DNA from: Abditibacterium sp.
GTDB taxonomy: Bacteria > Armatimonadota > Abditibacteriia > Abditibacteriales > Abditibacteriaceae
Assembly (NCBI GenBank): GCA_965199495.1
Contig: CBDASK010000003.1
Location: 4,352,001 to 4,416,000, forward strand
Length of the DNA: 64,000 nucleotides
Direction of reading: 5' to 3'
The position numbers and the translations under genes are program-made. The notes below the pieces were generated by a model that was given only the letters and a program-made list of their open reading frames with translations, was not told the DNA's origin and made no database searches. The stretch's first letter is position 1. Each line of letters begins with the position of its first letter. This document shows, in pieces, positions 69 to 63,453 of the stretch.

Positions 69-167
69 TAATCTCGCGATCCGATATAGATAATACCTTT
101 GCAATTCGTCGCAGGGGCGGCGTGGCTGCTGCGTTTGTCCCAGCTTTACGCTGCCATTTCTTTCACA

Positions 168-3011
168 ATGTCGCAACTCAAATTCTCCCCAACTCCCGCC
201 TTTCTTCTCGTCGCATCCAGCCTTTTGGTTCCGCTCGTGCAACCCGGCTGTGTGCAGGCTCAACCCAGCGCGATGCGCCAATCCCCGGCGCCCGTCATTC
301 CCGCCGTAGTTGCGGCGGCCAATCCGTTCGTCGGCACCGCCGAACACGGCCACACTTATCCCGGTGCGACGATGCCGTTTGGCATGGTGCAGCTTTCGCC
401 CGATACACCTTTGCAGGGCTGGGACGGCAGTTCGGGCTACCACTATTCCGATTCGGTGATTCAGGGCTTTAGCCATTCGCACCTGTCGGGCACGGGCGTC
501 GGCGGTTTGGGCGACGTTTTGCTGATGCCCACAGTTGGCGAGGTGCAACTTTCGCCGGGCGATCCGGGCAAAGCGGCGGGTTATGCGTCGCGCTTTTCGC
601 ACGCCAACGAATCAGCCACGCCGGGCTACTATAAAGTTTTTCTGGACGATCCCAAAGTCACCGCCGAACTGACGGCGACCGAGCGTTGCGGATTGCACAA
701 ATATACCTTCCCGGCCTCGAATAACGCGCACATCGTGCTGGATTTGCAGCACGGCGTCGGCAACAACGTCGCCGCATCGGGTTTGACAATCGAGAATAAC
801 ACGACAATTAGCGGCTATCGTAGCTCCGATGGCTGGGGCGGGCGGCGCGATGCTTATTTCGTGATGGAGTTTTCCAAGCCGTTCGCGTCTTATGGAGTCG
901 AGAAAGACGGCGCCCGCGAAACCGGCACGCCGACGAACGTGGATGGCAAAGCCGTCAAAGCGTTCGTCAACTACAACACGACGGCGGGCGAAACGATTTT
1001 GGTGCGCGTCGGCATTTCGGGCACCAGCATCGAAGGCGCGCGCCGCAATTTGAATGTCGAAATTCCCAATTTCGATTTCAATGCGGTTCACACCAAAGCC
1101 GTGAACGCGTGGAACGATCAGTTGGGCGCGATTCAAGTCGAAAGCAAAGACCCCAAGGTCGTGCGCACCTTTTACTCGAATTTGTATCAGTCGTATCTCG
1201 GCCCGGTTCTGTTCAACGATGTGGACGGAATGTATCGCGGGCCGGATAAAAAGAATCATCCGGGCACGGCATTCCAGAATTACACCACGTTTTCGCTGTG
1301 GGACACTTTCCGCGCTCAGGCGCCGCTTTTGACGCTGACCGAGCCGAGTCGCATCGCGGATATGATGAACTCGTTGCTGATGTTCGAGGCGCAGCGCGGC
1401 CAAAACGAGATGCCGGTCTGGACGCTGTGGGGCAACGAAACCGGGACGATGATCGGCTACAACTCAGCGCCGGTTGTCGCTGACGCTTACCTGAAAGGCT
1501 TTACGGGATTCAACGCCGAAGCGGCTTATCAGGCGCTCAAGCGCACGGCTTTGAACGGGCGCAACGGTCAAGACGAATTCAACAAAATGGGCTACGTGAT
1601 TTCGGGCGGAAAAAACAATCAGGCGGTCGCGCGCACGCTCGAATTCGCCTATGACGATTGGTGCATCGCGCAAATGGCGCAAAAGTTGGGGCATACCGAA
1701 GACGCCAAGATGTTCATGGAGCGGGCGGCCAATTTCGTCAAGGTTTACGACAGCACGAGCGGTTTCATGCGCGGGCGCACGGCCAGTGGCGATTGGCGCC
1801 GCCCGTTCAATCCCGATCAACTCGCGTGGGCCGATTATACCGAAGCCAACGCGTGGCACTATACCTGGGCCGTGATGCAAGACCCGCAGAAGTTGGTCAA
1901 GTTGATGGGCGGCGACGCGGCGTTCGTCAACAAAATGGACGAGATGTTCACGACCGAATCGAAGGGTTTATTCGGCATTCCCGACATCACCGGTTTGATC
2001 GGAGAATATGCGCAGGGCAACGAGCCGATACATCACGCGGCCTACCTGTATAACTATGCGGGCGCGCCCTACAAAACGCAGATGCGCGTGCGCGACATCA
2101 TGAAGCAACTTTATAACGACACGCCCGCTGGCGCGCCCGGCAACAATGATGTCGGCCAGATGTCGGCGTGGTATGTGTTTAGCGCCCTCGGTTTTTATCC
2201 GGTCAACCCGGCGCAGGGCACCTACGCCATCGGCAGCCCGCTCGTGGATAAAGCGACGATTCACCTCGACAAAAACTATTACGGCGGGCGCACCTTCACC
2301 ATGACGGCGCAGAATAACTCGCCGCAAAACGTTTATATTCAGTCGGCGACGCTCAACGGCAAGGCGCTGAATAATAGTTACATCACGCACAACCAGATTC
2401 TGGCGGGCGGCACCTTGAACTTCGTGATGGGGCCGAAACCAAATATGAACTGGGGCCGCGCCGATGCGAATCGTCCGCCTGCGGGTATGCCGGTTGGCTT
2501 TAATTATCCAGCCACGCCAGACCCGGCCAAGAAAATCGTGCAAAACTGGACGTTGCCGATTCGCGTTGTCGCGGGCAGCTACGACGATATCGACGGTTTC
2601 AAGGCCGATTTCACCAACGAAAACGGCGCGGTCAACGGCAACGGCGAGACGATTGATGTGAGCGCGCCGGGCGCTGCGCCGATGGCGATTTATCAGACCG
2701 AGCGTTACGGCAACGATGTCTCTTACGCGTATCCGGTTCCCAAGGGCGGCACTTACACGGTCAAGTTGCACTTCGCCGAAATCTTCGGCGCCGTGCCGGG
2801 CGAGCGCGTCGAGAACATTTCGATCAACGGCAAACCGGTTTTGACGAACTTCAGCGTCGCCGCCGAAGCCGGTCAGAATAAAGCCTTGGTGAAAACGTTC
2901 ACCGGCATCACGCCCGACGACAAGGGCAATATCACGGTTCGCGTGCAGGCGGCACGCGATAGCAAAGATCAAAACGCCAAAATCAGCGCGATTGAGATTA
3001 TGAAATCGTAA
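168..3011 (+). CDS. GH92 alpha-mannosidase with C-terminal malectin-like domain, secreted
   Basis: NPFVGTAEHGHTYPGA, PFGMVQLSPDT, FSLWDTFRA, YTEANAWHY, GNEPIHH, GNNDVGQMSAW; C-terminal IYQTERYG..YTVKLHFAEI..AKISAIEI. Start moved to ATG 168 (signal peptide). Confidence 0.92.
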   Translation: MSQLKFSPTPAFLLVASSLLVPLVQPGCVQAQPSAMRQSPAPVIPAVVAAANPFVGTAEHGHTYPGATMPFGMVQLSPDTPLQGWDGSSGYHYSDSVIQGFSHSHLSGTGVGGLGDVLLMPTVGEVQLSPGDPGKAAGYASRFSHANESATPGYYKVFLDDPKVTAELTATERCGLHKYTFPASNNAHIVLDLQHGVGNNVAASGLTIENNTTISGYRSSDGWGGRRDAYFVMEFSKPFASYGVEKDGARETGTPTNVDGKAVKAFVNYNTTAGETILVRVGISGTSIEGARRNLNVEIPNFDFNAVHTKAVNAWNDQLGAIQVESKDPKVVRTFYSNLYQSYLGPVLFNDVDGMYRGPDKKNHPGTAFQNYTTFSLWDTFRAQAPLLTLTEPSRIADMMNSLLMFEAQRGQNEMPVWTLWGNETGTMIGYNSAPVVADAYLKGFTGFNAEAAYQALKRTALNGRNGQDEFNKMGYVISGGKNNQAVARTLEFAYDDWCIAQMAQKLGHTEDAKMFMERAANFVKVYDSTSGFMRGRTASGDWRRPFNPDQLAWADYTEANAWHYTWAVMQDPQKLVKLMGGDAAFVNKMDEMFTTESKGLFGIPDITGLIGEYAQGNEPIHHAAYLYNYAGAPYKTQMRVRDIMKQLYNDTPAGAPGNNDVGQMSAWYVFSALGFYPVNPAQGTYAIGSPLVDKATIHLDKNYYGGRTFTMTAQNNSPQNVYIQSATLNGKALNNSYITHNQILAGGTLNFVMGPKPNMNWGRADANRPPAGMPVGFNYPATPDPAKKIVQNWTLPIRVVAGSYDDIDGFKADFTNENGAVNGNGETIDVSAPGAAPMAIYQTERYGNDVSYAYPVPKGGTYTVKLHFAEIFGAVPGERVENISINGKPVLTNFSVAAEAGQNKALVKTFTGITPDDKGNITVRVQAARDSKDQNAKISAIEIMKS

Positions 3012-3163
3012 TGTTTCAACGCGTTTGATGTTTCAAATAAAGTTCGGCGATTTATTTCGCCGAACTTTATTTTTGAGATTACCGTTTGCGCCAACAAATC
3101 TGGTTTTTGAAATTCTTTAATTCGCTTTATTTGATGAGCTAAACTGGCTGCGGACAAACTGTT

Positions 3164-4189
3164 ATGGTGCCTAAAAGTGCGAGTTCAACGAAAGCCAAGA
3201 GTATCAGGCGGGTCACTTTGCAAGACATCGCCGACCTTGCGGGCGTGCATAAAATGGTGGTTTCCAATGCGCTCAACGGCACCGGGCGCGTGGCACCAGC
3301 CACGCGCACGCGCATCCAACGCATCGCTCGCGAATTGCACTATATTCCCAACTTCGCGGCGCGCGCCCTGAGCAATGGAAGCACTCAAATCATCGCCGTT
3401 ATTAGCGGGCCAGTGGACGAACCTTATTACGGCACGATGGTTCATCTGCTGAAAAAACAGCTCGGCGAACAGGGCTTTCATTTGATGTTGATGGAAACGC
3501 CCGAAGAAGTTCAGGAGTTGGTCAGCGCAACGGGAAACCTCGCCGTTGATGGCGTGATTGCCATTGATATGCTGGGTTTAGTCAACGAATTTCGTTCTCA
3601 TCCGACGATTCCCCTCGTTTCGATTAGCACTTCCAGACAAGCCTTTGTGGACAACGTTTACGTGGATTTGAGCGCCAGCGTGCGACAAGCCATCGAGTTG
3701 ATGCTGGCGGCGGGCCGTCGCCGCATCGCGTATCTGGTCACGACCCACAGCATGGCCGACGAAACCGAAGTGCGGGCGGGCACCTATTTAAGCATGATGC
3801 GCCAAAGTGGGCGGGCCGAAGAGATTATTAACGTCCAGACCAACCAATTTTTCGCGCAGGAAGATCACTTCAGAATTTATATCAAAGAAAACGGCTGCCC
3901 CGATGCCCTGCTCTGCCAGAACGACGATACTGCGATGTGCGCCTTTGAAGTGTTGCGAGCATCGGGTTACCAAATTCCCCGCGACGTGCTTTTGCTGGGC
4001 TGCGATGGGCAACGACAGACGCAATATCTCACGCCGCCGCTTAGCACAATTGTGCAGCCAGTGGAAGAAATCTGCGCGACGGCGTGGCAGTTTTTGCACA
4101 ATCGCATCGCCAACCCCGGTTTGCCTCATCAGGAAGCGACCATCCAGGGAACTTTACTCGTCCGCGAATCTCTAAACGGTTCGCCCTAA
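3164..4189 (+). CDS. LacI-family transcriptional regulator
   Basis: HTH VTLQDIADLAGVHKMVVSNALN, hinge YIPNFAARAL, and DALLCQNDDTA..PPLSTI in the sugar-binding domain. Confidence 0.93.
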   Translation: MVPKSASSTKAKSIRRVTLQDIADLAGVHKMVVSNALNGTGRVAPATRTRIQRIARELHYIPNFAARALSNGSTQIIAVISGPVDEPYYGTMVHLLKKQLGEQGFHLMLMETPEEVQELVSATGNLAVDGVIAIDMLGLVNEFRSHPTIPLVSISTSRQAFVDNVYVDLSASVRQAIELMLAAGRRRIAYLVTTHSMADETEVRAGTYLSMMRQSGRAEEIINVQTNQFFAQEDHFRIYIKENGCPDALLCQNDDTAMCAFEVLRASGYQIPRDVLLLGCDGQRQTQYLTPPLSTIVQPVEEICATAWQFLHNRIANPGLPHQEATIQGTLLVRESLNGSP

Positions 4190-4247
4190 AACGGTTTCGT
4201 CCGCGACGATTCGAGGCCGCGAAAATTTTTCGTTACCAACCGAATAA

Positions 4248-4308
4248 ATGTTTGAAAAACGTCGAATCTGGGTATACATAAAAGCGCGCTACCGGTAGCG
4301 CGCTACCG
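4248..4308 (+). promoter_or_regulatory. Promoter (ATGTTT-N15-TGGGTATA) followed by a 22-bp perfect palindromic operator candidate
   Basis: AGCGCGCTACCGGTAGCGCGCT at 4283-4304, just after the -10-like TATACA. The same promoter architecture occurs at 18268 and 51524 (minus). Confidence 0.55.
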
Positions 4309-4342
4309 ATGAAATCCGCTTTCGATATTTCGCGCCAATGCT

Positions 4343-7327
4343 ATGAAACAAAAATTTCTTTTTAGTCTCGCTCCAACTCTGAATTTCAAGCGCACTTCCG
4401 CGCTCATCGTGCCCTTGACCGTCGCGTTCGCGGGCTGTGCCCACGCGCAAACCTACAAAGACGCCAAGGCGCCGCTTGAAACGCGCGTTGCCGATTTGAT
4501 GAGCCGATTAACCGACGATGAGAAAATCTCGCTGTTATCGGGCACCGATTTCACCACCAAACCGATTCCGCGCTTGGGCGTGCCCGCGATGGCGATGGCC
4601 GATGCCGGTCAGGGCGTGCGCGGCGGCTCGGATTCGACGCTCGGCCCGGCGACGGCTTTTCCGTCGGGCGTGGCGATGGCTTCGACTTGGAACACGAATT
4701 TGATCGGCAAAGTCGGCGCGCAGATCGGCATCGAAGCGCAAAACAAAGGCACCGGTTTGCAACTGATACTCGGCCCCGCCGTCAACATTCAGCGCAGCCC
4801 ATTGGGCGGGCGCAACGGCGAGTATTTTTCGGAAGACCCACTTTTGGCGGGCAAAATGGCCGTCGGCTACATTCGCGGAATGCAGGGCACGGGCACGGTG
4901 GCTTGTATCAAGCACTTCATCTGCAACAACGAAGAGGACGACCGTTTCACCGTCAACGTTTTGGTCGGCGAGCGGGCACTACGCGAGATTTATATGCCAG
5001 CGTTCGAGATGGGCGTCAAAGACGGCCATGTCTGGACGGTGATGTCGTCGTATAATCATATCAACGGGCCGTTCGCTTCGGCGGATCGCTACATTTTGAC
5101 CGACGTTTTGAAGCGCGGCTGGGGTTTTGATGGCGCCGTGATGTCGGATTGGGGCGGCGTGCATAATGGGCCGCAAGCGGTGATGGCGGGCAACGATCTG
5201 GAAATGCCCGACCGAGGTTTCATGGCGCCCGCGAAAATCAAGGACGCTCTCCATCGTGGCACGGTTACGATGGAGCAGATCAACCAGAACGTGACGCGCA
5301 CCGTTCGCACGATTTTGCGTTCGGGCGTGATTGATGGCGCCAAAACGCCCAATCCGGCTTTGGTCAACTCGCCCGCGAGCAGCCACGTCGCCCTGCAAGC
5401 GGCGCAGGAAGGCATCGTTTTGCTCAAAAACGAGCGCGCGACGTTGCCACTCGATGCCAGCAAAATCCGTTCGATTGCCGTCTTTGGCCCCGCCGGACGC
5501 GCAATGCAAGTCGGCGCGGCGGGCAGTCCGGGCGTGACGCCGCTTCATTCGGTTGGGCCGCTTCAGGGCATTCAAGAGCGCGCGGGCGCGAACGTCAAAG
5601 TGAATTATGTCGCGGGCGACACGGCGGGCATTGCGTTTCCCGCGGGAACTTTGAAAACGCCCGACGGCGCCGCCGAAGGTTTCCACGCCGACTATTACAA
5701 TAACATCAATCTCGAAGGCGCGCCCGCTTCGACGCGCACCGACGCGCAAATTGACTTTGAAGTGCCGATTACCGGCATCGTGACCGACCGTTACAGCATT
5801 CGCTGGACGGGCACTTTCACGCCGCGCGTGAGCGGCCCAACGAAGATATTGTTTCGCGCCGACGACGGCTCGCGCCTGTTCGTGGACGACAAACAGGTGA
5901 TTGACCATTGGGTGAACAGCGCCGCCAACACGCAAACCGCGACGCTTGATTTGGTCGCGGGCCAGCCGGTGAAACTGCGCGCCGAATACTTTCAATCGGG
6001 CGGCGGCGCCGTCGCGCAGTTGCGCATTCAGGAGCCGAACACCGACCCGTTCGCCGAAGTGACCAATCTGGCCAAGGCGAGCGACGTGGCTGTTGTTGTT
6101 GTCACCACGCGCGGAACGGAAAGCGAAGGCCAAGATCGGCCTTCGATGAGTTTGCCCGACGGACAAAACGAACTCATCGCGCGCGTCGCGGCGGCCAATC
6201 CGCGCACGGTCGTGGTTTTGAACAACGGCACGCCGGTCACGATGCCGTGGCTTTCATCGGTTCCGGCGCTGGTTGAGACGTGGTTTCCCGGACAGGAAGG
6301 CGGCACGGCGCTGGCGCAGATTCTGTTTGGCGATGTCAATCCGTCGGGCCATTTGCCCACGACTTTGGGCGCGCGCCGCGAAGATTACCCCGACTATCCC
6401 AACTTCAACGGCGACGGTCGCACCGTGCGCTACGACGAAGGCATTTTCGTCGGTTATCGCGGCTTCGATAAGAAGAAAATCGCGCCGCTCTTTCCGTTCG
6501 GCTATGGTTTGAGCTACACCAATTTTCGCATTGATAACCTGAAATTGTCGGCGCCGACATTGGTCGCCAACGGAACGATTACAGCGAACGTGCGCGTGAC
6601 TAATACGGGCCGCAAAGCGGGTGCGCAGGTCGTGCAACTTTACGTGCGCGATCCGAACCCGAAAGTCGAAAAAGCCGTGCGCGAGTTGAAGGGCTTTACA
6701 AAAGTCTTCTTGCAGCCGGGCCAGAGCCAGACCGTTTCGCTGCCGCTTTCGCCGCGCGATTTCGCGTGGTGCGACACGACCGCTAAAGGTTGGCGCGCCG
6801 ACGCTGGGCGCTACCAAATCGAAGTCGGCGATTCGTCGCGCAATTTGACAGCGCACGCGGCTTTGCAAGTCCAATCGTGGTTTCAGCCGATTCCATTTAT
6901 GCGCGCGCAAACCGACATCGCGCCCGTCGAAACCGCGCCCGATTTGGCCTTGAATAAACGCGCGTTCGCGTCGTCGGTCAACGGCGAACACGCGGCGGCA
7001 CGAGCGTTCGACAACGATGTTAAAACGCGCTGGCAAGCGCAAGGCCGCGACGGCGAATGGCTCGCCATCGATCTGGGCGCGCCGCAGAAAATTGGGCGCG
7101 TTCACCTAAATTGGGAAGCGGCCAACGCCGATGCGTATCGCATTGAAGTGTCGGACGATGGCGAAAATTGGCGCCCAGTTTATTCGACCGACAAGAGCCA
7201 AGGCGGCGAAGAAGACGTGACCTTTACACCAGCCACGGCGCGTTACGTGCGAATGTTCGGCGTGAAGCGCGCGACCGATTTCGGCTTTTCGCTTTACGAT
7301 TTCGAGGTGCGCGCGCCGTTGGGTTAA
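4343..7327 (+). CDS. GH3 beta-glucosidase/xylosidase with PA14, Fn3-like and C-terminal F5/8 type C (CBM32-like) domains
   Basis: GRNGEYFSEDP, IKHF, VMSDWGG (nucleophile), GIVLLKN, PA14 (SIRWTG..ADDGSRL), PLFPFGYGLSY, ELKGF; C-terminal AFDNDVKTRW..WLAIDLG. Confidence 0.93.
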   Translation: MKQKFLFSLAPTLNFKRTSALIVPLTVAFAGCAHAQTYKDAKAPLETRVADLMSRLTDDEKISLLSGTDFTTKPIPRLGVPAMAMADAGQGVRGGSDSTLGPATAFPSGVAMASTWNTNLIGKVGAQIGIEAQNKGTGLQLILGPAVNIQRSPLGGRNGEYFSEDPLLAGKMAVGYIRGMQGTGTVACIKHFICNNEEDDRFTVNVLVGERALREIYMPAFEMGVKDGHVWTVMSSYNHINGPFASADRYILTDVLKRGWGFDGAVMSDWGGVHNGPQAVMAGNDLEMPDRGFMAPAKIKDALHRGTVTMEQINQNVTRTVRTILRSGVIDGAKTPNPALVNSPASSHVALQAAQEGIVLLKNERATLPLDASKIRSIAVFGPAGRAMQVGAAGSPGVTPLHSVGPLQGIQERAGANVKVNYVAGDTAGIAFPAGTLKTPDGAAEGFHADYYNNINLEGAPASTRTDAQIDFEVPITGIVTDRYSIRWTGTFTPRVSGPTKILFRADDGSRLFVDDKQVIDHWVNSAANTQTATLDLVAGQPVKLRAEYFQSGGGAVAQLRIQEPNTDPFAEVTNLAKASDVAVVVVTTRGTESEGQDRPSMSLPDGQNELIARVAAANPRTVVVLNNGTPVTMPWLSSVPALVETWFPGQEGGTALAQILFGDVNPSGHLPTTLGARREDYPDYPNFNGDGRTVRYDEGIFVGYRGFDKKKIAPLFPFGYGLSYTNFRIDNLKLSAPTLVANGTITANVRVTNTGRKAGAQVVQLYVRDPNPKVEKAVRELKGFTKVFLQPGQSQTVSLPLSPRDFAWCDTTAKGWRADAGRYQIEVGDSSRNLTAHAALQVQSWFQPIPFMRAQTDIAPVETAPDLALNKRAFASSVNGEHAAARAFDNDVKTRWQAQGRDGEWLAIDLGAPQKIGRVHLNWEAANADAYRIEVSDDGENWRPVYSTDKSQGGEEDVTFTPATARYVRMFGVKRATDFGFSLYDFEVRAPLG

Positions 7328-7404
7328 ATGACTTGTCCACGTTTTAGAGTGGAATTCGCCGTTCAATAGCGTAATAGAGTGTAATATTTTCAAATGTCAA
7401 AAAC

Positions 7405-8352
7405 ATGAAAAAAATCAAACTTTTTCCGAAATCGAAATTCGCGGTTCAGGCCGGATTACTCGCGTTTTTCCTCGGCGCGGGTTGCGCCGCACCGCAACCC
7501 GCGTCCGCCATCGAAGCTGGCGATGCCGACCTGATGTTCAACGGGTTCAACCAAGCGTTTCTGGTCAATTCGAGCTTCTACGCCAATTCGATCAAGGACA
7601 AAAAGCCGATTGACACATGGCGTTCTTCGCTGACCATTATGATCGCCGAAGACGCCTACGAGCGCACCGGCAATGCCAAAGATAAAGCTCTGGTAGGCGA
7701 ACTCTGCTCGTCGTGGCTCCAGTGGAGCGAAGACGGATGGCCACGCGCGCCGTTGGGTGCGCGCCGCAGTGAGCCGATGCCCGCGCCGATGGGCGTGCAG
7801 CAAAAGCCGATGATTCCGCTCTCCGACGATTTCCGCGCGGCCCAACTCCGCCCAACGTGGCAAGCGTGGAACGAACGCGACATGAATCGCTTTCAAGTCG
7901 GCAACGGCACCTTGACGATGCGCGCCAAAGGCGAAACGCTGGCGGAAAGTTCGCCGCTCGCGATTATGGCGCGCGACCCCAGTTATCAGGTGCAAGTCAC
8001 GGCAACGCCGCCAGCAGAGGGCGCGGTGGCGCTGGGTCTGTTTTACAACGTGAACAACGGGTTATGGCTCGAAGTCAAAGGCGGCGAACTGCGCGTTTAC
8101 GACGCCAAACAGAGTTTGAATACTCGCCCGTGGAAAGCGGGACGCACGCATCTGAAAATAGTCAACCGCCGCAATCAAGTCGATTTTTTGGCGAGTGCCA
8201 ACGGATGGGACTGGATTTCTCTGGTCACCAACCATGATGTCTCCGACTATATGCACAACAAACGCGGCGGCTTTCAGGCATTGCGCCCGGCACTTGCAGC
8301 CACGGGCACCGGCAACGCACAGTTCAGCGATTTCGTTTATAGCGGACGCTGA
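7405..8352 (+). pseudogene. In-frame chimeric ORF: signal peptide and GH76-like N-terminus fused to a GH43-type C-terminal beta-sandwich; no complete catalytic domain
   Basis: N-terminal part DADLMFNGFNQAF..EDAYERTG resembles GH76 starts. From WSEDGWP..SDDF..LRPTWQ it resembles a GH43 C-terminal domain. Assignment is by motif recall only. Confidence 0.5.
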
Positions 8353-8421
8353 GAATGGGACGAGGTTTTAGTTCGGCTAACTCGCGTGAAATTACCGTCG
8401 CGAAATTGGCCTAACGAACAA

Positions 8422-8463
8422 TTCAAGCGTCTGAAGCGAACGGATTCGCTCCAGACGCTTGAA
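8422..8463. repeat. Intergenic hairpin
   Basis: TTCAAGCGTCTGAAGCGAA-cgga-TTCGCTCCAGACGCTTGAA, one mismatch. Confidence 0.6.
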
Positions 8464-8496
8464 AAACTTACGACTTAGGTGTCAAGGGCTATAAAC

Positions 8497-8536
8497 AAAA
8501 GCGGGCGAAGAATAGAAATATCCTTCGCCCGCTTTT
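8497..8536. terminator. Bidirectional intrinsic terminator
   Basis: AAAAGCGGGCGAAG-N12-CTTCGCCCGCTTTT between convergent genes. Confidence 0.75.
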
Positions 8537-8546
8537 CACAAATCAA

Positions 8547-12029: not shown

Positions 12030-12104
12030 GATAGATTTTTATTTTTGCAACAGAAACGCAGTTGCCGTTTATTTGTAGGGACATGGCGTACTCTGCCCGA
12101 AACG

Positions 12105-50596: not shown

Positions 50597-50624
50597 AAAC
50601 CAATCGAAAAACCGCTACGAAGCA

Positions 50625-51467: not shown

Positions 51468-51524
51468 ATGCCCCAACGCCGGGGCACTTTTTAATTATAC
51501 CCATTTTTCCGTGTTTCCAAACAT
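51468..51524 (-). promoter_or_regulatory. Promoter ATGTTT-N15-TGGGTATAAT followed by operator GCCCCGGCGTTGGGGC
   Basis: Minus strand ATGTTTGGAAACACGGAAAAATGGGTATAATTAAAAAGTGCCCCGGCGTTGGGGCAT; the operator matches 37880-37895. Confidence 0.6.
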
Positions 51525-51771
51525 TTATTCGCAAATTTTATCGGCCTTGAGCGTTTCGGTCGGGTTGGCGTAAGGCATCAACGTGGCGTGCCCCTGTTGC
51601 TTATTTTCGCCGATGTTAGCGGGGTCTTCGATTATAGACGCGCTCGCGATGAAAACGGATTTAATTTCGCAATGGTAAACGCGACTAAATTTGCCCCTGC
51701 GTTGGACTATGAATTACAATTATACAAAATTATGCGTTATTCGGTGCCATTTGAACGACGCCAAAACTCAT

Positions 51772-54978: not shown

Positions 54979-55203
54979 AAATTAAAAACGTTATTTTTGC
55001 CGGGAAACGCACTATCAAACTGGAGTTGCGGCTTTCAGTACGGGCGTCGAAATTCTCATTTTCTAAAACAGTCGCAACGCAGGATTACCCCAAGTCAGGA
55101 ACTGATAACGACGTGACGCTGCAAAAATGTCCGACAAACTGCGCGGAATTAATATCGTCCGCAATTGATTGTCTCTGCGTCAGAACACTGATTACAATTA
55201 TAC

Positions 55204-55221
55204 TGAACTATCGTTAGTTCA
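55204..55221. promoter_or_regulatory. Operator candidate TGAACTATCGTTAGTTCA
   Basis: 18-bp CG-centred palindrome (one mismatched pair) directly after TATACT, upstream of GH27. Confidence 0.5.
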
Positions 55222-55276
55222 CGGAGCGACAAAGAACCAGTGAGATTATCGTTCTGCTTTATATGCGATCAACGCG

Positions 55277-57334
55277 ATGAAATCCCTTTCTTTTTTTACC
55301 CTGTCTGCGGGGGCCTTGATGCTTTTTCCATGCGCGGCGAATGCCGCGCAAAGCGTAAATTGGGGAGACTCGGATATTTCCAAAATCAGCGTCGGTTATG
55401 GCGCGCCGGGGCGCGACAAAAGCGTGGATGGCCAGCCGCTTTCGATTGGCGGACAAAAATTTGAGAAGGGCGTCGGCGTCCATGCGACCAGTGGCGCGAC
55501 GGTGCAACTCGACGGCAAAGCCACGCGTTTTACGGCTTCGGTTGGCGTGGATGATGAAGTCATCAAAGCCGGAGAACAACGCGGTTCAGTTGAGTTTTTG
55601 GTGGCGAGCGACGGTAAAATTTTGTGGCGTAGCGGCCAAATGAGCGCGGGCGACATCGCCAAAACCGTGGACGTGGCTTTAGTTGGCGTGCGTGAGCTTC
55701 AGTTGGTGGTTTCGTCTCTGGGCGACAACGCGTTCGATCACGCCGATTGGGCGCAGGCGAAGCTTGAATACGACGGCGCCGCGCCGCAATTGGTGGATGC
55801 GCAGCGCGAAACCGCCGTGATTTTGACGCCCCAACCCAAAGCTGTGCCGCGCATCAACGGTGCGCGCGTTTTTGGCGCGCGGCCCGGCACGCCGTTTCTT
55901 TATGCCGTCGCCGCGACCGGACAAAAACCGTTGCACTATTCCGCCCAAAATTTGCCCGCCGGACTTTCGCTTGACGCGCAAAGCGGTTTGATAACCGGAC
56001 GCTTGGCACAAAAAGGCACTTATCGCGCGACGATTTCAGTGGCCAATGCGCTGGGCCGCGACACAAAACCACTGCGCATCGAAATCGGGCAGGACATTAA
56101 TCTGACGCCGCCGATGGGCTGGAATTCGTGGTATCGTTACAGCGAATCGGTGAGCCAGCAGAACGTTTTGGAAACCGCGCGCGCCCTCAAAGAAAGCGGT
56201 TTGGCCGATCACGGTTGGAGTTACATCAACATTGACGATTGCTGGCAGGGCGAGCGGAGCGGGCCGAATCTGGCATTGCAGGCCAACGAGAAATTTCCCA
56301 ATATGAAGGCGATGTGCGATCAAATTCACGCGCTCGGACTTAAAGCCGGACTTTACTCGACGCCGTGGATTAGCAGCTACGCCGGGTTTCGCGGTGGCAG
56401 TTCGCCGGGCGCCGACGGCAGTTATCCGGTCGCCCTGCCGCCCGAAAAACGCTTGCAACCGGGCCAGATTTTCGGGCGCGCGCCGGGCTATCGTTTGGCC
56501 GGATTGAATCATATCGGCGAGCATTGGTTCTTCGACCGCGACGCGCGGCAAATCGCCGATTGGGGTTTCGATTACATCAAAATGGACTGGGCTGGCCCCG
56601 ACGTGGCGACGACGCAACGCATCGAATCCGATTTAATGAAAGTGAATCGTGATATTACGCTCAGTCTGAGCAACAGCGCGCCGCTCGATAGGGCGCCGCA
56701 ACTGAGCCAACTCGCGCAGGCGTGGCGCACGACGGGCGATATTCACGACAACTGGGCCGCAGTTTCGAGCATCGCGCAGGCGCAGCAGAAGTGGGCGCCT
56801 TTCACCAAACCGGGACATTGGAACGATCCCGATATGTTACAAGTCGGCGTTTTGGGCGTGCCCAATTCGTTCAATGCCGCTGGCAAACCAAGTGGCCTCA
56901 CGCCCAACGAACAATACAGTCAAGTCAGTTTGTGGAGCCTGTTTTCGGCGCCGTTGATTTTGTCGTGCGACATCGCCACGTTGGATGATTTCACCAAAAG
57001 TTTGCTCACCAACGACGAAGTTTTGGAAGTCAACCAAGACCCGATGGTCGCTCCGGCGAGTTTGATTTCGGACGGCGACGCGCGCATTTGGAGCAAACCA
57101 CTCGAAGATGGCAGCATCGCGGTTGGTCTGTTTAACTTCGGCGAATTGGAACAGGAAATCAGCGTGAATTTCGCCGATTTGAAATTGGATAAACCGCAAC
57201 GCGCCCGCGATTTATGGAGGCAAAGCGATTTAGGCACCCACGACAAATTTTTTGCCGCGCGCGTGCCGCGTCACGGTGTGTTGCTGGTCAAACTCTCGCC
57301 AGTTGATGGCGGCAGATTTTCATCAACCCCATAG
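55277..57334 (+). CDS. GH27 alpha-galactosidase-family enzyme with NPCBM/NEW2 and Ig-like domains, secreted
   Basis: NPCBM (KGVGVHA..VGVDDE..DHADW), LPAGLSLD Ig-like, TPPMGWNSW, IDDCW, YIKMDW, WRTTGDI, WNDPDML. Confidence 0.92.
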   Translation: MKSLSFFTLSAGALMLFPCAANAAQSVNWGDSDISKISVGYGAPGRDKSVDGQPLSIGGQKFEKGVGVHATSGATVQLDGKATRFTASVGVDDEVIKAGEQRGSVEFLVASDGKILWRSGQMSAGDIAKTVDVALVGVRELQLVVSSLGDNAFDHADWAQAKLEYDGAAPQLVDAQRETAVILTPQPKAVPRINGARVFGARPGTPFLYAVAATGQKPLHYSAQNLPAGLSLDAQSGLITGRLAQKGTYRATISVANALGRDTKPLRIEIGQDINLTPPMGWNSWYRYSESVSQQNVLETARALKESGLADHGWSYINIDDCWQGERSGPNLALQANEKFPNMKAMCDQIHALGLKAGLYSTPWISSYAGFRGGSSPGADGSYPVALPPEKRLQPGQIFGRAPGYRLAGLNHIGEHWFFDRDARQIADWGFDYIKMDWAGPDVATTQRIESDLMKVNRDITLSLSNSAPLDRAPQLSQLAQAWRTTGDIHDNWAAVSSIAQAQQKWAPFTKPGHWNDPDMLQVGVLGVPNSFNAAGKPSGLTPNEQYSQVSLWSLFSAPLILSCDIATLDDFTKSLLTNDEVLEVNQDPMVAPASLISDGDARIWSKPLEDGSIAVGLFNFGELEQEISVNFADLKLDKPQRARDLWRQSDLGTHDKFFAARVPRHGVLLVKLSPVDGGRFSSTP

Positions 57335-57441
57335 AGACACCGATTTATCGCGTCTAAAACGTCAAAGCCACCGCCAACAAAGCGGATTCATTGAACGTTT
57401 TAGACGCGATAAATCGGTGTCTCTACGGGGTTGATGAAAAT
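57316..57441. repeat. GTAGAGAC-family REPIN overlapping the GH27 stop codon
   Basis: 47-bp inverted arms (1 mismatch) with a 32-nt spacer. Confidence 0.9.
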
Positions 57442-57474
57442 TGCGATCCAAACGAAACCTAAAAATCATTCCCA

Positions 57475-60330
57475 ATGAATTTTTTCAAATCAAATCCCGC
57501 CAAACTCATCGTTCTGGCTGCGAGCCTAATCCTGAGCGCCGCGCCCTTACTCGCGCAGCCTTTGACGGTGCGCGAACGCGCGCAAAAGAACGATTTCGCG
57601 CTCGTCAATAACGGCAAATCTGCCGCGATTTTGCGTGATAACAGCGACGCTAAAGTCGTCCAAATCGCCGCCGATTTGCTGGCGCAAGACATCAAACGCG
57701 TCACGAATGTGAATGCCCAAACTTCGCTCGACCGCTCGCAAGCAGTGATTATCGGCACGCTGGGCGAAAGCGCGTTGGTGAGCGAAGCCCTCGCCAGCAA
57801 CAAGCTCGACGTGGCTGCACTTAGCGGGCAGTGGGAAAGCTACAAAATCGCTGTTGTCAACAATCCATTGCCCAAAACTCATCCCGAAATCAAACGCGCG
57901 CTTTTAGTTGTCGGCAGTGACCGGCGCGGCACGGCTTACGGCACGTTTGCGCTCAGCGAATCCATCGGCGTTTCGCCGTGGTACTGGTGGGCCGACGTGC
58001 CGCCAACGCGCCATGCCAATTTGTTTTTGGCATCGCAAACCATCAATCAGGGGCCGCCGTCGGTGAAGTATCGCGGACTTTTCATCAACGACGAAGATTT
58101 CGGCATGCAGCCGTGGGTCGCCAAAACGTTCGACCCAGCCACCGGCAATATCGGCCCGAAAACCTACGCTAAAGTTTTCGAGTTGCTCCTGCGATTGCGC
58201 GCCAATTTCTGCTGGCCCGCGATGCACCCGAATACGCACGCCTTCAACTTTTATCCCGACGATAAACGGGTCGCCGACGATTACGCGATTGTGATGGGCG
58301 CCTCGCACTGCGAGCCGATGCTGGTCAACAACGCGGTCAAAACCGAGTGGGACACGAAGGTGGATGGCGAGTGGAATTACGAAACCAACGCGGCGGGCAT
58401 GGGCAAAGTTTGGGATGCACGCCTTCAAACCAACGGCCAATATGAGAACGTTTATACCGTCGGGATGCGCGGCATTCACGATGCGCCGATGCCGGGCAAG
58501 GGCACGCCCACGGAAAAGGCGCGCATTTTGGAAAAAGTCATCGCCGACCAACGCGAAATTTTGCACAATCGCACCGGCAAACCCACCGACGAAGTGCCGC
58601 AGATTTTTATCCCTTACAAAGAAGTTTTGGGCATTTACCGCACCGGAATGCAGGTGCCCGATGACGTGACTTTGGTCTGGGTTGATGATAATCACGGCTA
58701 TTTGCGCCAATTGTCCAATCCGCAGGAGCAAAAACGGGCGGGCGGTTCGGGCGTTTATTATCACTTTTCCTATTGGGGCGCGCCGGAAGATTATCTGTGG
58801 ATCGCCTCGACTTCGCCGTCGCTGACCGCCTACGAAATGAACAAGGCGTATCAATATGGCGCCAATCGTTTGTGGGTTTTCAACGTCGGCGATTTGAAAC
58901 CCGCCGAAAAAGAGTTGACTTTCGCGCTCAAAATGGCGTGGGACATCAAAGAGGGCACGCCGCAAAAGGCGCTCGATTTTCCGCGCCAGTGGGCGGGCCA
59001 AACTTTTGGCGCCCAATTCGCCGCGCCGATTGGCCAAATTCTGAACGAATATTATCGTCTGGCGCAACGCGGCAAGCCGGAACACATGAATTTGGTGACG
59101 TTTTCACCCGCGCAGCGCGCGCAACGTCTGGCCGATTATCGCTCAATCGCCGCGCGTGCCAACGCGATTTATGGACAAATTCCGGCGCCACTCAAAGACG
59201 CGTATTACGAATTGGTTTTCTATCCCATCGCGGCGGCGGCGCTGCAAAACGAGAAATTTTTGCTGGCGCGCGACAGTATAGAAATGGCGGCGCAGGGCGA
59301 CCCGAACGCCCTAAAAGTCGCCGCGCAAGCGCAAGCGGCCTACGACCAAATCGCGCGTATCACCGACGTTTACAACAACGGCATCGCGGGCGGAAAATGG
59401 CGCAACATGATGAGTTGGCATCCGCGTGACATCGCGCCTTTTAAGATGCCCAAAGTCGCCACCGCCGATATGATTGGAGCCGCGAAAATCTCGGCGCCGA
59501 TTGAAATTCCGCTTGCGGCGGGCACTTTCGCGGCGCCGATGCAACTGAAAAACGGCGTATTGGGTGGCACTTCGCCCGACGTGCAAAGCGAAGCGACGGG
59601 CGGAAGCGCGACTTTTCAATTCGATTCTCCAGCAAGCGAAACGGCGCCGCTGTGGGCTTGGGTGAGCGCGCCTTCGCCCGACGAAGATTCGTGGTTTTTC
59701 GATTTCAACGGCCAAAAAACCGTCGTCAACGACAAAACGACGGGCGCGCAATGGAAATGGGTAAAATTGGGCGATTTTGATTTGAAAGCGGGCCACAACA
59801 CGCTGACAATCGGTCAACGCGAACCCAACGCGCGCATCCAAAAACTGCGTTTTGGCGGCGATGATCCGACGGCGCCAACCGACGCATTACTCCAAATCGC
59901 GGGCGCCGATTTCGTCCGCAAGACCGATACCGCGAGCGCAAAAATTACTAAATTCGCCGGTTTCGGTCAGGGCAACGGTTCGGTGACGATCCTGCCCGTC
60001 ACGGCGCCATCGGTGGCGCCCGACAAAGCGGCGAGCGCGATTTATCAAGCGCAATTACCCGCCGGAAGTCGCAGCGCGACCCTGCGATTTTTGCCGACTT
60101 CGGCGATTAACGAAACGCACGGCCTGCGCGTGGCTGTCAGTATCAACGGCGGTGCGGCGCAGATTCTCGATCTGAACGCGCAGGAATTCAGCAAAGAATG
60201 GGGCGATAACGTATTGCGCGGCTTTTCGCAGCGCGAAATGAGTTTCGAGCAAAACGCGGGGCAAAAAACCAACGTCGAAGTCAAGTTTTTGGATCCAGGT
60301 CTGGTTTTGGAAGCGATTGATTTTCGATAA
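57475..60330 (+). CDS. GH115 alpha-glucuronidase-family enzyme, secreted
   Basis: GSDRRGTAYG, GVSPWYWW.D, VKYRGLFINDE, WPAMH, SHCEPM, GMRGIHD, DDNHGY, NVGDLKP. Confidence 0.92.
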   Translation: MNFFKSNPAKLIVLAASLILSAAPLLAQPLTVRERAQKNDFALVNNGKSAAILRDNSDAKVVQIAADLLAQDIKRVTNVNAQTSLDRSQAVIIGTLGESALVSEALASNKLDVAALSGQWESYKIAVVNNPLPKTHPEIKRALLVVGSDRRGTAYGTFALSESIGVSPWYWWADVPPTRHANLFLASQTINQGPPSVKYRGLFINDEDFGMQPWVAKTFDPATGNIGPKTYAKVFELLLRLRANFCWPAMHPNTHAFNFYPDDKRVADDYAIVMGASHCEPMLVNNAVKTEWDTKVDGEWNYETNAAGMGKVWDARLQTNGQYENVYTVGMRGIHDAPMPGKGTPTEKARILEKVIADQREILHNRTGKPTDEVPQIFIPYKEVLGIYRTGMQVPDDVTLVWVDDNHGYLRQLSNPQEQKRAGGSGVYYHFSYWGAPEDYLWIASTSPSLTAYEMNKAYQYGANRLWVFNVGDLKPAEKELTFALKMAWDIKEGTPQKALDFPRQWAGQTFGAQFAAPIGQILNEYYRLAQRGKPEHMNLVTFSPAQRAQRLADYRSIAARANAIYGQIPAPLKDAYYELVFYPIAAAALQNEKFLLARDSIEMAAQGDPNALKVAAQAQAAYDQIARITDVYNNGIAGGKWRNMMSWHPRDIAPFKMPKVATADMIGAAKISAPIEIPLAAGTFAAPMQLKNGVLGGTSPDVQSEATGGSATFQFDSPASETAPLWAWVSAPSPDEDSWFFDFNGQKTVVNDKTTGAQWKWVKLGDFDLKAGHNTLTIGQREPNARIQKLRFGGDDPTAPTDALLQIAGADFVRKTDTASAKITKFAGFGQGNGSVTILPVTAPSVAPDKAASAIYQAQLPAGSRSATLRFLPTSAINETHGLRVAVSINGGAAQILDLNAQEFSKEWGDNVLRGFSQREMSFEQNAGQKTNVEVKFLDPGLVLEAIDFR

Positions 60331-60338
60331 TTGAAGTG

Positions 60339-60424
60339 ACAGGAGCGGGGCTGACGCACCCTTCCAATAGGATAAGTTCCTCCATAGACCGCCGATTGGA
60401 AGGGTGCGTCAGCCCCGCTCCTGT
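60339..60424. repeat. Long inverted repeat (REPIN-like, distinct family)
   Basis: Perfect 30-bp arms ACAGGAGCGGGGCTGACGCACCCTTCCAAT with a 26-nt spacer. Confidence 0.85.
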
Positions 60425-60483
60425 AGTATCCAATTCAAGAATGGTTAGGACTTACGCAGGGGCGTTGATTTAGACTTTTTCTG

Positions 60484-61551
60484 ATGAGTTTGAGCAAACT
60501 GGATTACTGCCAATATCTTCTGAGCAGCCCGGTCAATTACACCTTGACTAACATGGCCGCTCATGTGGAAGAGCTGTCCCATGACCGTCTCAACCGCTAC
60601 CTGCGCGGGGAGAAGCTCACCCCGCGTTTGTTGTGGGAGAACGTGCGCGAAGTTTACCAGCCGTGCGCGAGTGGGTTTATCGTGTTCGACGACACGGTGT
60701 TGGACAAGAGCTTTGGCCCCTCTATCGAGACCACGCGCAGACAATGGAGCGGCAACGCTCATGGTATCGTGCGCGGTATCGGTCTGGTCTCGTGCCTCTA
60801 TGTCCATCCCGAAACCGAGCAGTTTTGGGTCATTGACTACCGCATCTTCGACCCCGATGGCGACGGCAAAAGCAAGCTCGACCATGTCGAAGAGATGCTG
60901 CAAAGCATCAAGGCGCGGGCAATTCCGTTTCAAACCGTGCTGATGGACTCGTGGTATGCCACCAAACACCTGATGTGGACAATCGAGAACTGGCACCAAA
61001 ACACCCAACAGGAGGACAGTGCCGGTGCCGGTGCCGGTGCCGGTGCCGACAAGAAGCTGTTCTACTGTCCGCTCAAAAGCAACCGCAAAGTCGATGATAG
61101 CTTTGGTGAGCGACCTTACCGCGCGGTGAGTGAGTTGGAGTGGAGCGAAGCAGAGTTACAAACGGGCAAAAAGATCAAGGTTTATGGGTTTGCTAAAGAG
61201 TTCAAGGTGCAACTGTTCCGGGTGCCGGTTTCTTCCAGCCGCACGGACTACGTCGTGACCAACGACTTGTCTCAGGATTCCACGCAAGAGACACGAAAGG
61301 TGTGTGCCGTGCGCTGGAAGATTGAGCAGTATCACCGAGAAATCAAGCAACTCACAGGCATCGAGAGCTGCCAATGCCGCAAAGCTCGCATTCAGCGTAA
61401 CCACGTCCACTGCGCGCTTTTGGTCTGGACACGATTGACCGCCATTGCTCACCGCAATCTCACAAACGTCTACCAACTCAAGCACGGCTTGCTGCGAGAC
61501 TACCTCGTTCAACAACTCAAAAGACCTACCATCAACTTGGCTTCTGCGTAA
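60484..61551 (+). CDS. IS701-family DDE transposase
   Basis: YCQYLL, SHDRLNRYL, FDDTVLDK, LMDSWY, RWKIEQYHREIKQ..QCRKARIQRNH. Confidence 0.88.
   Translation: MSLSKLDYCQYLLSSPVNYTLTNMAAHVEELSHDRLNRYLRGEKLTPRLLWENVREVYQPCASGFIVFDDTVLDKSFGPSIETTRRQWSGNAHGIVRGIGLVSCLYVHPETEQFWVIDYRIFDPDGDGKSKLDHVEEMLQSIKARAIPFQTVLMDSWYATKHLMWTIENWHQNTQQEDSAGAGAGAGADKKLFYCPLKSNRKVDDSFGERPYRAVSELEWSEAELQTGKKIKVYGFAKEFKVQLFRVPVSSSRTDYVVTNDLSQDSTQETRKVCAVRWKIEQYHREIKQLTGIESCQCRKARIQRNHVHCALLVWTRLTAIAHRNLTNVYQLKHGLLRDYLVQQLKRPTINLASA
61021..61047 (+). repeat. In-frame hexamer tandem repeat (GCCGGT)4.5 in the transposase
   Basis: Encodes AGAGAGAGA. Confidence 0.9.
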
Positions 61552-61557
61552 GTCCTA

Positions 61558-63453
61558 ATGGTTATATTCCCCAAACAATTGCTCCGCACAAACCATTATC
61601 TCAACTTAATTTTGGTTGTGGTCGCGAGTCTGTTGGCACACAGCAGCCACGCCGCCGATGACGTGATGATCGGCGATTTTGAAGGCCCAAATTACGGCAA
61701 TTGGACAACGCAAGGCACGGCGTTTGGCGATGGCCCCGCGCGGGGCGCGCGGGCCGCGCACTTAGAAATTCGCGGGCAACGCGGCAATGGAGCGGCCAGC
61801 AGCGAATTAGACGGCGACGCGCCGATGGGAACTTTGACTTCGCCGCTCTTCCAAATTGAACGGCACTATATTTCTTTTGTGATTGGCGGCGGTGGCTACG
61901 AGCATGACACCTGCTTGAATTTGCTCGTCGGCGGGCGCATCGTCAAAAGTGCGACTGGTTTTTTCAGCGACAATCTCCAGCCGATGAGTTGGGATGTCAG
62001 TTCGCTAATGGGACAACGCGCGCAAATTCAAGTCGTGGATCGGGCCAGTGGCCAATGGGGACATATCAACGTGGATAACATCAAACAAACCGACGCACCA
62101 GAGCGCCTGCCCGTCGTGACACAGCCACTCTATGGAGAGACGTTTCGCCCGCAGTTTCATTTTACCGCGCGCCAGTGGACAGTTGACCGGCTCAATCCCG
62201 CGCGCCGCCAAGAAGGTTGGCTCAACGATTTGAACGGGTTGGTCTATTACGATGGCGAATATCATCTTTTCGCGCAGCGTTGGAACAAATGCTGGATTCA
62301 TGCGGTGAGCCGCGACTTAGTTCACTGGACGGAATTGCAACCTGCGTTTTGGGAAGAAGAGTTGGATAGCGGCGTGCAATCGGGCAGTTGCGTGATAGAT
62401 TACGGCAACACGTCGGGGCTTTCGCCCGACAAGAACAATCCGCCGATGGTGGCGTTTTGGTCGCGCAACGATAACCGCAGCCAGTGCCTTTCGTATAGCC
62501 TCGATTACGGGCAGACTTGGACGCATTACGCCAAAAATCCCGTTCTGCTCAAGCCGGAACGCGACCCGAAAGTCTTTCGCTACGAGCCATCGGGCGAATG
62601 GGTAATGATCATGTATGGCGAGGGCCAATATCATGTGCTGACTTCCAAGAATTTGCTGGATTGGACGGATGAAAAGAAGCCCATCGGCCACAGTTTTGAG
62701 TGCCCGGATTTTTTCGAGTTGCCCATTGACGGCAACAAAGCCAACAGCAAATGGGTCTTGGTGCGCGCGGACGGCAAATACACGCTCGGAACTTTCGATG
62801 GAACCCAGTTCAACGAGGAAACCCCGCAATACACCTCGGATGTCGGCCCCAACTTTTACGCGACACAGACGTGGGACAACACCGACAAAATTGACGGACG
62901 CCGCATTCAAGTCGCCTGGATGCGCGAAGGCATCTACCCCGAAATGCCCTTCAATCAGCAGGTGACTTTTCCGTGCCAACTGACATTGCGCACGACCGCC
63001 AACGGCCCGCGCTTGTTCCGCGAACCGATCCCGGAAATCGCGGAGCTTCACCAAGGCGAGGACAAATGGGCGAACCGCACGCTTCAGGCGGGCCAAACGT
63101 TGGACTTGAAACCCGTTGGCGATTTGTTCCACATCAAAATGCAAGTCAGCATTCCGGCGGGAACGACGCTCACGCTCAACGTTCGCGGTGTCCCCTTAGA
63201 AATGACGCATGACAGCCTCGCCAATGGCAGCGCACCAGCGACCGTTGCGGGCGAACTGCAAACCGTCGAAATACTGATTGATCGCACGTCTATCGAGGCG
63301 TTTGGAAACGCGGGCGAAGTTTCGACATCGCGCTGCTTTTTGCCGGGCGACAGCGGCTTGTCGTTGACAGCGAATGGCGGCCCGGCGACGGTTCGGTCTT
63401 TGTCCGTTTTCCGGTTGAAATCGATTTGGAATCCTCGTGTTGCCAAGCCTTAA
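61558..63453 (+). CDS. GH32 beta-fructosidase/levanase with N-terminal accessory domain
   Basis: RPQFHF, WLNDLNG (nucleophile), QSGS, ERDPKV, FECPD, FYATQTW, IDRTSIE; signal peptide. Confidence 0.92.
   Translation: MVIFPKQLLRTNHYLNLILVVVASLLAHSSHAADDVMIGDFEGPNYGNWTTQGTAFGDGPARGARAAHLEIRGQRGNGAASSELDGDAPMGTLTSPLFQIERHYISFVIGGGGYEHDTCLNLLVGGRIVKSATGFFSDNLQPMSWDVSSLMGQRAQIQVVDRASGQWGHINVDNIKQTDAPERLPVVTQPLYGETFRPQFHFTARQWTVDRLNPARRQEGWLNDLNGLVYYDGEYHLFAQRWNKCWIHAVSRDLVHWTELQPAFWEEELDSGVQSGSCVIDYGNTSGLSPDKNNPPMVAFWSRNDNRSQCLSYSLDYGQTWTHYAKNPVLLKPERDPKVFRYEPSGEWVMIMYGEGQYHVLTSKNLLDWTDEKKPIGHSFECPDFFELPIDGNKANSKWVLVRADGKYTLGTFDGTQFNEETPQYTSDVGPNFYATQTWDNTDKIDGRRIQVAWMREGIYPEMPFNQQVTFPCQLTLRTTANGPRLFREPIPEIAELHQGEDKWANRTLQAGQTLDLKPVGDLFHIKMQVSIPAGTTLTLNVRGVPLEMTHDSLANGSAPATVAGELQTVEILIDRTSIEAFGNAGEVSTSRCFLPGDSGLSLTANGGPATVRSLSVFRLKSIWNPRVAKP

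Follow-up and report, generated by a model that had tools for sequence, protein, structure and literature searches.

The window analysed here is a stretch of 64,000 nucleotides from the chromosome of an Abditibacterium sp. in the phylum Armatimonadota (genome G000; positions 4352001–4416000 of its chromosome contig, C3, in a 4.81 Mb assembly). Its genes form a series of glycoside hydrolases with regulators, two transposases and three prepilin-like DUF1559 genes among them, a setting with nothing special for the element of interest, a short word of consensus a-g-CAGCCACG-B-CG that recurs on both strands between 121 and 61651. A first-pass annotation of the window had counted 43 exact copies of the octamer, 25 reading CAGCCACG and 18 reading CGTGGCTG, and this count proved correct to the coordinate. 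Its background estimate did not: the window is 56.7% GC rather than about 60%, hence about 2.5 rather than about 4 chance copies would be expected, and 100 dinucleotide shuffles gave a mean of 2.46 and a maximum of 9. The longer form GCAGCCACG, which had been recorded as frequent, is present in 30 of the 43 copies, and NCG continues 29; the one-off variants are AAGCCACG (9), GAGCCACG (6) and TAGCCACG (3). Copies lie, as had been described, both within genes (38 of 43 by our own calls) and between them (5 of 43), and the GCA and GCT triplets are indeed rare among alanine codons (5.8% and 9.8%). Our gene caller trims starts, and the copies at 121 and 46725 may therefore be coding.

The plus-strand series (25 copies, spanning 613..61651) begins at 613, 2509, 3297, 5380, 7230, 8297, 12206, 16598, 19421, 22369, 23787, 26130, 26313, 30426, 31519, 34668, 39139, 42148, 43655, 47680, 49298, 50296, 52710, 54912 and 61644. 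The minus-strand series (18 copies, spanning 121..60136) has its low coordinates at 121, 6085, 9480, 17897, 21099, 23845, 31160, 31211, 34479, 40165, 42293, 45652, 46725, 48759, 50180, 54112, 57810 and 60129. Of the 42 pairs of adjacent copies, 29 are split between the strands. That opposite-strand copies are not mutually exclusive is seen in a close head-to-head pair within an alpha-L-rhamnosidase gene (23787..23852, both strands). A close same-strand pair (31160..31218, minus) breaks the spacing rule described below, and its copy at 31211 lacks the NCG tail. One minus-strand copy, at 42287..42306, has GACAC before it and TCC after it, the flanks typical of the relative G004. Intergenic copies lie at 12206..12213 and 22369..22376 on the plus strand and at 48759..48766 on the minus strand. 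The transposase genes, of the rve and DDE types, are at 29909–30880 and 60484–61551 in the sugar-utilisation region; the first contains the word (at 30426), the second does not.

The enrichment reaches beyond the window to a total of 3,091 copies in G000. The chromosome (4.72 Mb) has 3,083, of which 1,558 are on the plus and 1,525 on the minus strand, or 0.65 per kb, and they are evenly spread, with a variance-to-mean ratio of 0.75 in 2 kb bins. An expectation-maximisation fit to some 3,150 sites gave a flanking consensus, a-g-C-AGCCAC-G-B-C-G, longer than the octamer first proposed. The abundance survives codon-preserving null models. In the 3,557 G000 genes of at least 300 bases that we called, the octamer occurs 2,802 times, against 264 under a synonymous shuffle (10.6-fold) and 682 under a dicodon shuffle (4.1-fold), and the 11-mer 1,978 times, against 54.5 and 162, respectively. 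All six frames are enriched, by 3.3- to 26.5-fold. Replichore polarity is absent: with boundaries set by skew extremes, the count is 1,491 of 3,083 (48.4%, p 0.07), and with dnaA, recognised by its Walker motif, it is 1,499 of 3,083. The GC skew of G000 is weak. The first-pass annotation had named loss under such null models, confinement to the window and strong replichore polarity as findings that would tell against its proposal, and none of them was made. We conclude that the force that keeps the word acts on the DNA, not on protein or RNA.

The word is scarce in four islands, chosen because they are the widest gaps between copies (0.21–0.33 per kb), and in the lowest class of GC content at third codon positions (0.29 per kb). 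It is also thin on two small contigs, which we read as plasmid-like (24.7 kb) and phage-like (64.6 kb) and which have two copies against 1.2 expected and six against 2.5 expected. The 16S gene has no copies and the ribosomal protein cluster is not depleted. CRISPR spacers contain no octamer in 4,753 bases, an uninformative sample, and none of the 85 viral contig loci examined, from at least 120 matched, is clearly word-rich. Restriction-site avoidance was rejected as a cause, TTCGAA, CGGCCG, CTCGAG and others being avoided across the family in a manner that does not track the word. Such avoidance of six-letter palindromes is itself extreme family-wide (G000 and the ComEC loci L022–L041), with 176 TTCGAA against 7,515 expected and 32 CGGCCG against 4,780 expected; CTAG and GTAC are avoided too.

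The arrangement of the copies revealed a rule of spacing that is specific to the strand and that, like the longer consensus, was missing from the first account. Along the chromosome, 1,940 adjacent copies alternate in strand and 1,142 do not. Up to 400 bp apart, same-strand pairs reach 0.1–0.3 of expectation, with a recovery by 1–1.5 kb, and opposite-strand pairs stay at about expectation with a small excess below 30 bp. At 60–600 bp there are 178 same-strand against 523 opposite-strand pairs (p 3e-40), the latter at 0.96 of expectation, and 200 shuffles of the strand labels gave at least 322 same-strand pairs. Among 444 frequent 8-mers, a value below 0.8 is found only for the eight that overlap the word; the others have a median of 1.24. 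The ratio of same- to opposite-strand pairs is 109:366 within genes, 42:64 across co-oriented genes, 9:37 across opposed genes and 18:56 with an intergenic partner; since the rule persists across gene boundaries, it acts on DNA. Gaps along one strand have a mean of about 2.5 kb and a median of 2.0 kb. The polarity recurs in G004 (21 same-strand against 52 opposite-strand pairs). Strong same-strand sites exclude edge variants of the word but not core variants, which maps the functional core to AGCCAC. No asymmetric footprint in base composition was found around the sites and the exclusion of weak variants is symmetrical, so that neither reveals the direction of reading. A toy simulation in which a per-strand rule gives same-strand-only depletion and a strand-blind rule depletion on both strands has this outcome built in and is an illustration, not evidence. 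Overall, another copy within about 0.6–1 kb makes a copy redundant if both are on one strand, but not if they are on opposite strands.

As a control, we examined the DNA uptake sequence (DUS) of Neisseria. From 79 metagenome loci around inverted DUS pairs, 64 were of at least 8 kb and 48 remained after merging; three low-density contigs were dropped, leaving 45 contigs (821 kb), and close inverted pairs were removed before counting. Same- and opposite-strand pairs were 16:41 at 60–300 bp (p 0.0013), 35:35 at 300–600 bp and 117:123 at 600–1,500 bp. In this weak control, then, a known uptake sequence shows the same sign of spacing over a shorter range.

Among 401 genomes of the phylum searched, the 11-mer is enriched in three: G000 and its two closest relatives, G004 (Abditibacterium sp., CBDHBZ010000003.1) and G011 (Abditibacteriales bacterium, JBBSTH010000005.1), both ranked within the window's genus. 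These carriers form a clade with support of 1.0 in a single-gene ComEC tree of 21 genomes. Around a common core there are clade-specific dialects: G011 has the form of G000, and G004 has GACAC-CAGCCACG-TCC (2,083 copies of this 12-mer, against 41 and 36). Half of the G004 copies are intergenic, often in head-to-head doublets 33–34 bp apart, an arrangement rare in G000. In 360 orthologues of G000 and G004, G004 has the identical sequence at 63 of 272 G000 sites (23%; random windows, 28.5%), and G000 at 63 of 142 G004 sites. As many as 113 of the 272 differ at three or more of the eight bases, against 22% for random windows, and gaps at sites are not in excess (16 of 288; random, 5.5%). Many-base differences without extra gaps indicate a fast turnover in which substitutions rewrite the sites; a passage in PMC2397512 states that recent DUS, too, differ at too many bases for a single point mutation. 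Between G000 and G011, 14 of 19 sites are kept (random windows, 41%), and between G000 and word-free members of the genus, three of 115. The shared orthologues contain 288 coding copies in G000 and 172 in G004. Doublets in G004 deplete coding copies nearby (two against 11.0 expected at 60–300 bp), and both kinds therefore count toward one demand. The word was gained recently and is limited to one clade. The G004 chromosome is heavily rearranged relative to G000: the 360 orthologues, in 720 kb, fall into 78 blocks, although median protein identity is 84%.

Other Abditibacteriaceae have words of a different kind. RAGTACK is very abundant in seven of 27 family genomes (3,152–9,383 matches; 18–73 in the three carriers). 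The four examined all have palindromes at 0.7–1 per kb: AGTACGGTCGAATTCGACCGTACT-like in G017 (G017:C14:200000-539999; L129–L131, L142–L155), CTGCAAGTACTTGCAG in G014 (G014:C6; L123–L125, L156–L158), ATCGAGTACTCGAT in G020 (G020:C1; L120–L122, L159–L161) and CGAGTACTCG in G022 (G022:C13; L041, L135–L136). The AGTAC words of G018, G024 and G042 are known by count only. The share of loci that is coding rises from 17% in G017 through 34% in G014, 57% in G020, 61% in G004 and 83% in G022 to 93% in G000, and locus density in these six genomes is 0.6–1 per kb. The words of the family may be one system; the forms in G017 and G014 could be plain terminators or repetitive extragenic palindromic (REP) sequences. 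Searches for gapped and ungapped words yielded nothing comparable in 100–120 kb each of G002, G006, G009, G010 and G012, or in smaller samples of G013 (83 kb), G023 (64 kb), G016 (59 kb), G019 (43 kb), G021 (29 kb) and G015 (16 kb). The samples of G001, G003 and G007 came to only 13–20 kb and that of G041 to 4.8 kb, and G005 and G008 lay outside these searches, so that a word may have been missed. Clusters of the GAGTACT type occur on a few contigs of G005 (C98, C508 and C522), a genome that otherwise avoids them, possibly through transfer or contamination from a palindrome-bearing relative. Three AAAGTACTTT copies lie in the 4.8 kb of L344 (G041:C59:1162-5949), and G041 has only 398 RAGTACK matches in total.

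Competence genes are present in G000, namely comEC, dprA, pilT and a ComEA-type gene. In the pilus locus (C3:861101-880963), the minor pilins are 41–59% identical to those of G004, compared with 84–93% for PilB/T/C/D. The locus includes tandem PilX-like proteins (G000:C3:872853-880963, L328) of 1,300 residues without a Pfam match beyond the N-terminus; the pair is in tandem in all three carriers, and a PilX-like tip protein occurs in 25 of 27 family genomes. An atlas search returned PilX_N and DUF4900 clusters as leads. The N-terminal 741 residues of the tip protein folded with a predicted local distance difference test (pLDDT) score of 72.7 and a predicted template modelling (pTM) score of 0.44, with a minor pilin matching only at Z 6.7 and ComZ not listed. 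By analogy only, the fast-evolving minor pilins (G000:C3:867671-880963) would be the first candidate readers of the word.

A tblastn search of G000 with AddA and AddB matched only UvrD, and neither RecBCD nor AddAB was found in the carriers, whose assemblies are 95% (G000), 92% (G004) and 87% (G011) complete. AddA is present in 10 of 10 word-free members of the genus and in none of the three carriers. All ten word-bearing family genomes have a single UvrD-family helicase, as do five genomes without a seen word; recJ is present in five of five genomes. A fusion of a PD-(D/E)XK nuclease and a DNA2/NAM7 helicase, of 1,421 residues (G000:C3:4111365-4115630; L092:5366-9631, minus strand), tracks the word within the genus (three of three carriers, none of ten other members) but not within the family. 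Two Pfam families of methyltransferase, PF07669 and PF01555, searched in five genomes, yielded no member common to G000, G004 and G011 yet missing from G009 and G012; one methyltransferase common to the carriers is also in G009 (53%). G000 has mutS, by motif inspection. Each of five genomes searched has one dnaG of ordinary length and no PF01896 primase, the only other primase family sought.

We see an even chance that the word is a self tag resembling an uptake sequence and read per strand. Word-carrying DNA would be taken up or recombined preferentially in natural transformation, by way of the type IV pilus, ComEA, ComEC and DprA, and word-bearing alleles would replace word-free ones by molecular drive. 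The reader, with a reach of about 1 kb, would work per strand: it would act on the one strand brought into the cell or else determine which of the two is brought in. The demand of the two strands would be met by genic single copies in G000 and G011, by palindromes in G014, G017, G020 and G022, and by intergenic inverted doublets together with single copies in G004. We infer that the driving force is a biased exchange of DNA, and that this exchange proceeds by transformation. What stands of the first-pass proposal is a lineage-specific, selected signal of the uptake type, supported by the codon nulls, the lack of polarity, the clade limit with its dialects and the competence genes; the link to methylation that it also offered finds no tracking methyltransferase in the two Pfam families.

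Several observations weigh against the word as an uptake-type tag. Competence genes are near-universal, word or not (comEC in 40 of 41 genomes, pilT in 27 of 27), and rapid evolution is usual for surface pilins. The word is not enriched in repair genes (36 against 30.1 expected) or competence genes (21 against 17.4 expected), and it is rarer between genes, where only 212 of the 3,083 chromosomal copies lie (93% are coding) though 15% of the sequence is intergenic. G000 sites are no better conserved in G004 than random windows, and the strand polarity in G011, from 91 kb, is not significant (4 against 10). The polarity in G000 is stronger and longer than that of DUS (163:507 against 51:76, Fisher p 0.0004), as judged by a control that is small, non-independent (related species, chosen around inverted pairs) and binned after inspection. 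According to a section of PMC1939737, uptake by Haemophilus influenzae is independent of the orientation of its uptake signal sequence (USS), and according to part of PMC12061091, efficient DUS recognition requires double-stranded DNA. A reader at the pilus tip must therefore be reconciled with per-strand spacing.

That spacing is what a reader translocating in one direction predicts, and an intracellular analogue of Chi would supply one: a directional helicase–nuclease other than AddAB or RecBCD would resect double-stranded DNA, broken or incoming, to the word in one orientation and load RecA there. The effect of Chi is orientation-dependent in the text excerpted from 10.1101/2021.07.08.451572, and the distribution of AddA in the genus and the single UvrD-family helicase of the ten word-bearers agree with a replacement of this kind, for which the nuclease–DNA2/NAM7 helicase is a candidate. 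We nevertheless consider it unlikely. The candidate gene is interrupted in the assembly of G011, where the frame changes, occurs in G016 without a seen word and was not found in G014, G018, G020, G022, G024 or G042; AddA is missing as well from five genomes in which no word was seen; within the genus, the co-occurrence amounts to one phylogenetic event; and replichore bias is absent. The spacing would also be explained if the word were a methylation mark by which repair tells the strands apart, a role proposed for the highly iterated palindrome HIP1: an asymmetric site, methylated on one strand, informs one daughter duplex only, and a separate series at intervals of about 1 kb is then required on each strand; the palindromes of the relatives would serve both strands, mutS is present, and a portion of 10.1101/2024.09.10.611283 describes HIP1 as acting methylation-dependently in transformation. 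This too is improbable, given that PF07669 and PF01555, the methyltransferase families searched, hold no enzyme that tracks the word and that per-site selection through repair seems too weak to force amino-acid changes (identity at sites 0.73).

There is a similarly small chance that the word marks priming or replication restart on a single-stranded template. The mean per-strand gap of about 2.5 kb is near the length scale of Okazaki fragments, and weak GC skew and rearrangement relative to G004 could blur a replichore bias, but newly gained sites show no bias (84 leading, 75 lagging), in contrast to third-position AT skew, which differs by replichore, and dnaG is single and ordinary. An oriented binding site for a nucleoid-organising or other chromosome-wide protein would suit the even spacing (variance/mean 0.75), and sections of PMC5861425 link HIP1 to chromosome structure through periodicity; yet occupancy of double-stranded DNA should exclude copies on both strands, and with opposite-strand pairs at 0.96 of expectation we hold this very improbable. 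Least credible is an absence of function, whether as a codon artefact, decayed REP insertions or the purging of direct repeats. The G004 form does resemble a GTAG-type REP doublet with fixed 33–34 bp spacing, and same-strand pairs could be thinned out by the deletion of DNA between direct repeats. Against this, the codon nulls were passed, in G000, 93% of copies lie in coding sequence and align without gaps, other frequent 8-mers are in same-strand excess (median 1.24), G004 tolerates tandem direct copies, and no Y1 transposase is bracketed by doublets at eight G004 and six G000 loci. This reading is largely refuted already.

Comparison with DUS and USS, based on portions of PMC2397512, PMC7811141, PMC12061091 and PMC12616744, reveals a close likeness: thousands of asymmetric copies, written into genes, strand-equal, at about one per 1–1.5 kb; scarcity in acquired DNA, clade dialects, origin by substitution and competence genes; inverted intergenic pairs in G004; and same-strand spacing, also present in the DUS control. 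The differences are the phylum and the sequence, a same-strand exclusion of about 1 kb rather than about 0.3 kb, the few intergenic pairs in G000, the palindromes in relatives and, in place of a ComP/PpdA-like reader, pilin candidates only. The word is thus like DUS and USS on genomic criteria, membership being beyond what sequence can assign. With HIP1 and alternate HIPs (parts of PMC5861425, PMC13756078 and 10.1101/2024.09.10.611283; a role for HIP1 in aiding transformation has lately been proposed), it has in common hyper-abundance, independence of frame and selection at the level of DNA, and the AGTAC palindromes of G020 and G022 look HIP-like. The first-pass alternative of a HIP1-like signal does not fit an asymmetric word, though relatives hold palindromic counterparts (G014, G017, G020 and G022); a cognate methyltransferase was not found in the two Pfam families searched in five genomes. 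Chi is likewise a short asymmetric word, with an effect that is apparently orientation-dependent, but its abundance in Escherichia coli is explained by codon usage, according to a passage in 10.1101/2021.07.08.451572, unlike that of the G000 word. Chi itself and the FtsK-orienting polar sequences (KOPS) are not supported, no AddAB or RecBCD and no replichore polarity having been found; since AddAB was not found in the word clade, the word is not Chi. REP sequences and REPINs, with their REP-associated tyrosine transposases (RAYTs), invite comparison by architecture: G004 has fixed-spacing inverted doublets with a GTAG foot, and G017 and G014 have mostly intergenic hairpins. Copies in G000, however, are 93% coding, made by substitution and not hairpins, no transposase is bracketed by the word, and G017 has no Y1_Tnp match; as extragenic hairpins, those of G000 do not qualify (212 of 3,083 intergenic) and those of G004, G014 and G017 do so in part. 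On defining features, the word fails membership of Chi, KOPS, HIP1 and REP. Unrelated to it, the G000 chromosome has a pair of GTAG-type REP families, each with about 85–90 copies, and a further repeat present about 88 times.

Other features of the genome are recorded here for completeness. In the window, a glycoside hydrolase family 67 alpha-glucuronidase is divided between two open reading frames, 37928–38503 (N-terminal domain) and 38543–40315 (the rest), by a frameshift or an assembly error. A CRISPR array of 131 repeats lies at G000:C3:2766475-2775027, and one spacer matches the chromosome near C3:593121. The single 16S gene (G000:C3:1860971-1862487) is followed by protein genes and no 23S gene, so that the rRNA genes are apparently unlinked.

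In the literature examined, uptake sequences are described from two families of proteobacteria, and HIP1, whose function is still debated, from cyanobacteria. The literature listings searched gave no paper on such words in Abditibacteriaceae, though genome-wide k-mer tables in supplements could contain the word. Here a third phylum has asymmetric and palindromic words at similar density within one family, and in one clade the gain of a word is recent and goes together with an apparent loss of AddAB. Spacing on the same strand only, weaker in Neisseria DUS, constrains the mechanism to a per-strand reader with a reach of about 1 kb, and sister species, some bearing the word and some lacking it, provide a ready-made comparison in the search for that reader. 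We would venture, as a doubtful proposition, that Abditibacteriaceae have one undescribed per-strand system of self-recognition, whose target switches between palindrome, hairpin and asymmetric word at 0.6–1 locus per kb and which replaces AddAB–Chi where that is missing. If so, a single mechanism would underlie HIP1, DUS and such repeats in their several forms, and a reader's reach could be gauged from sequence alone by the same-strand spacing, in Neisseria as well.
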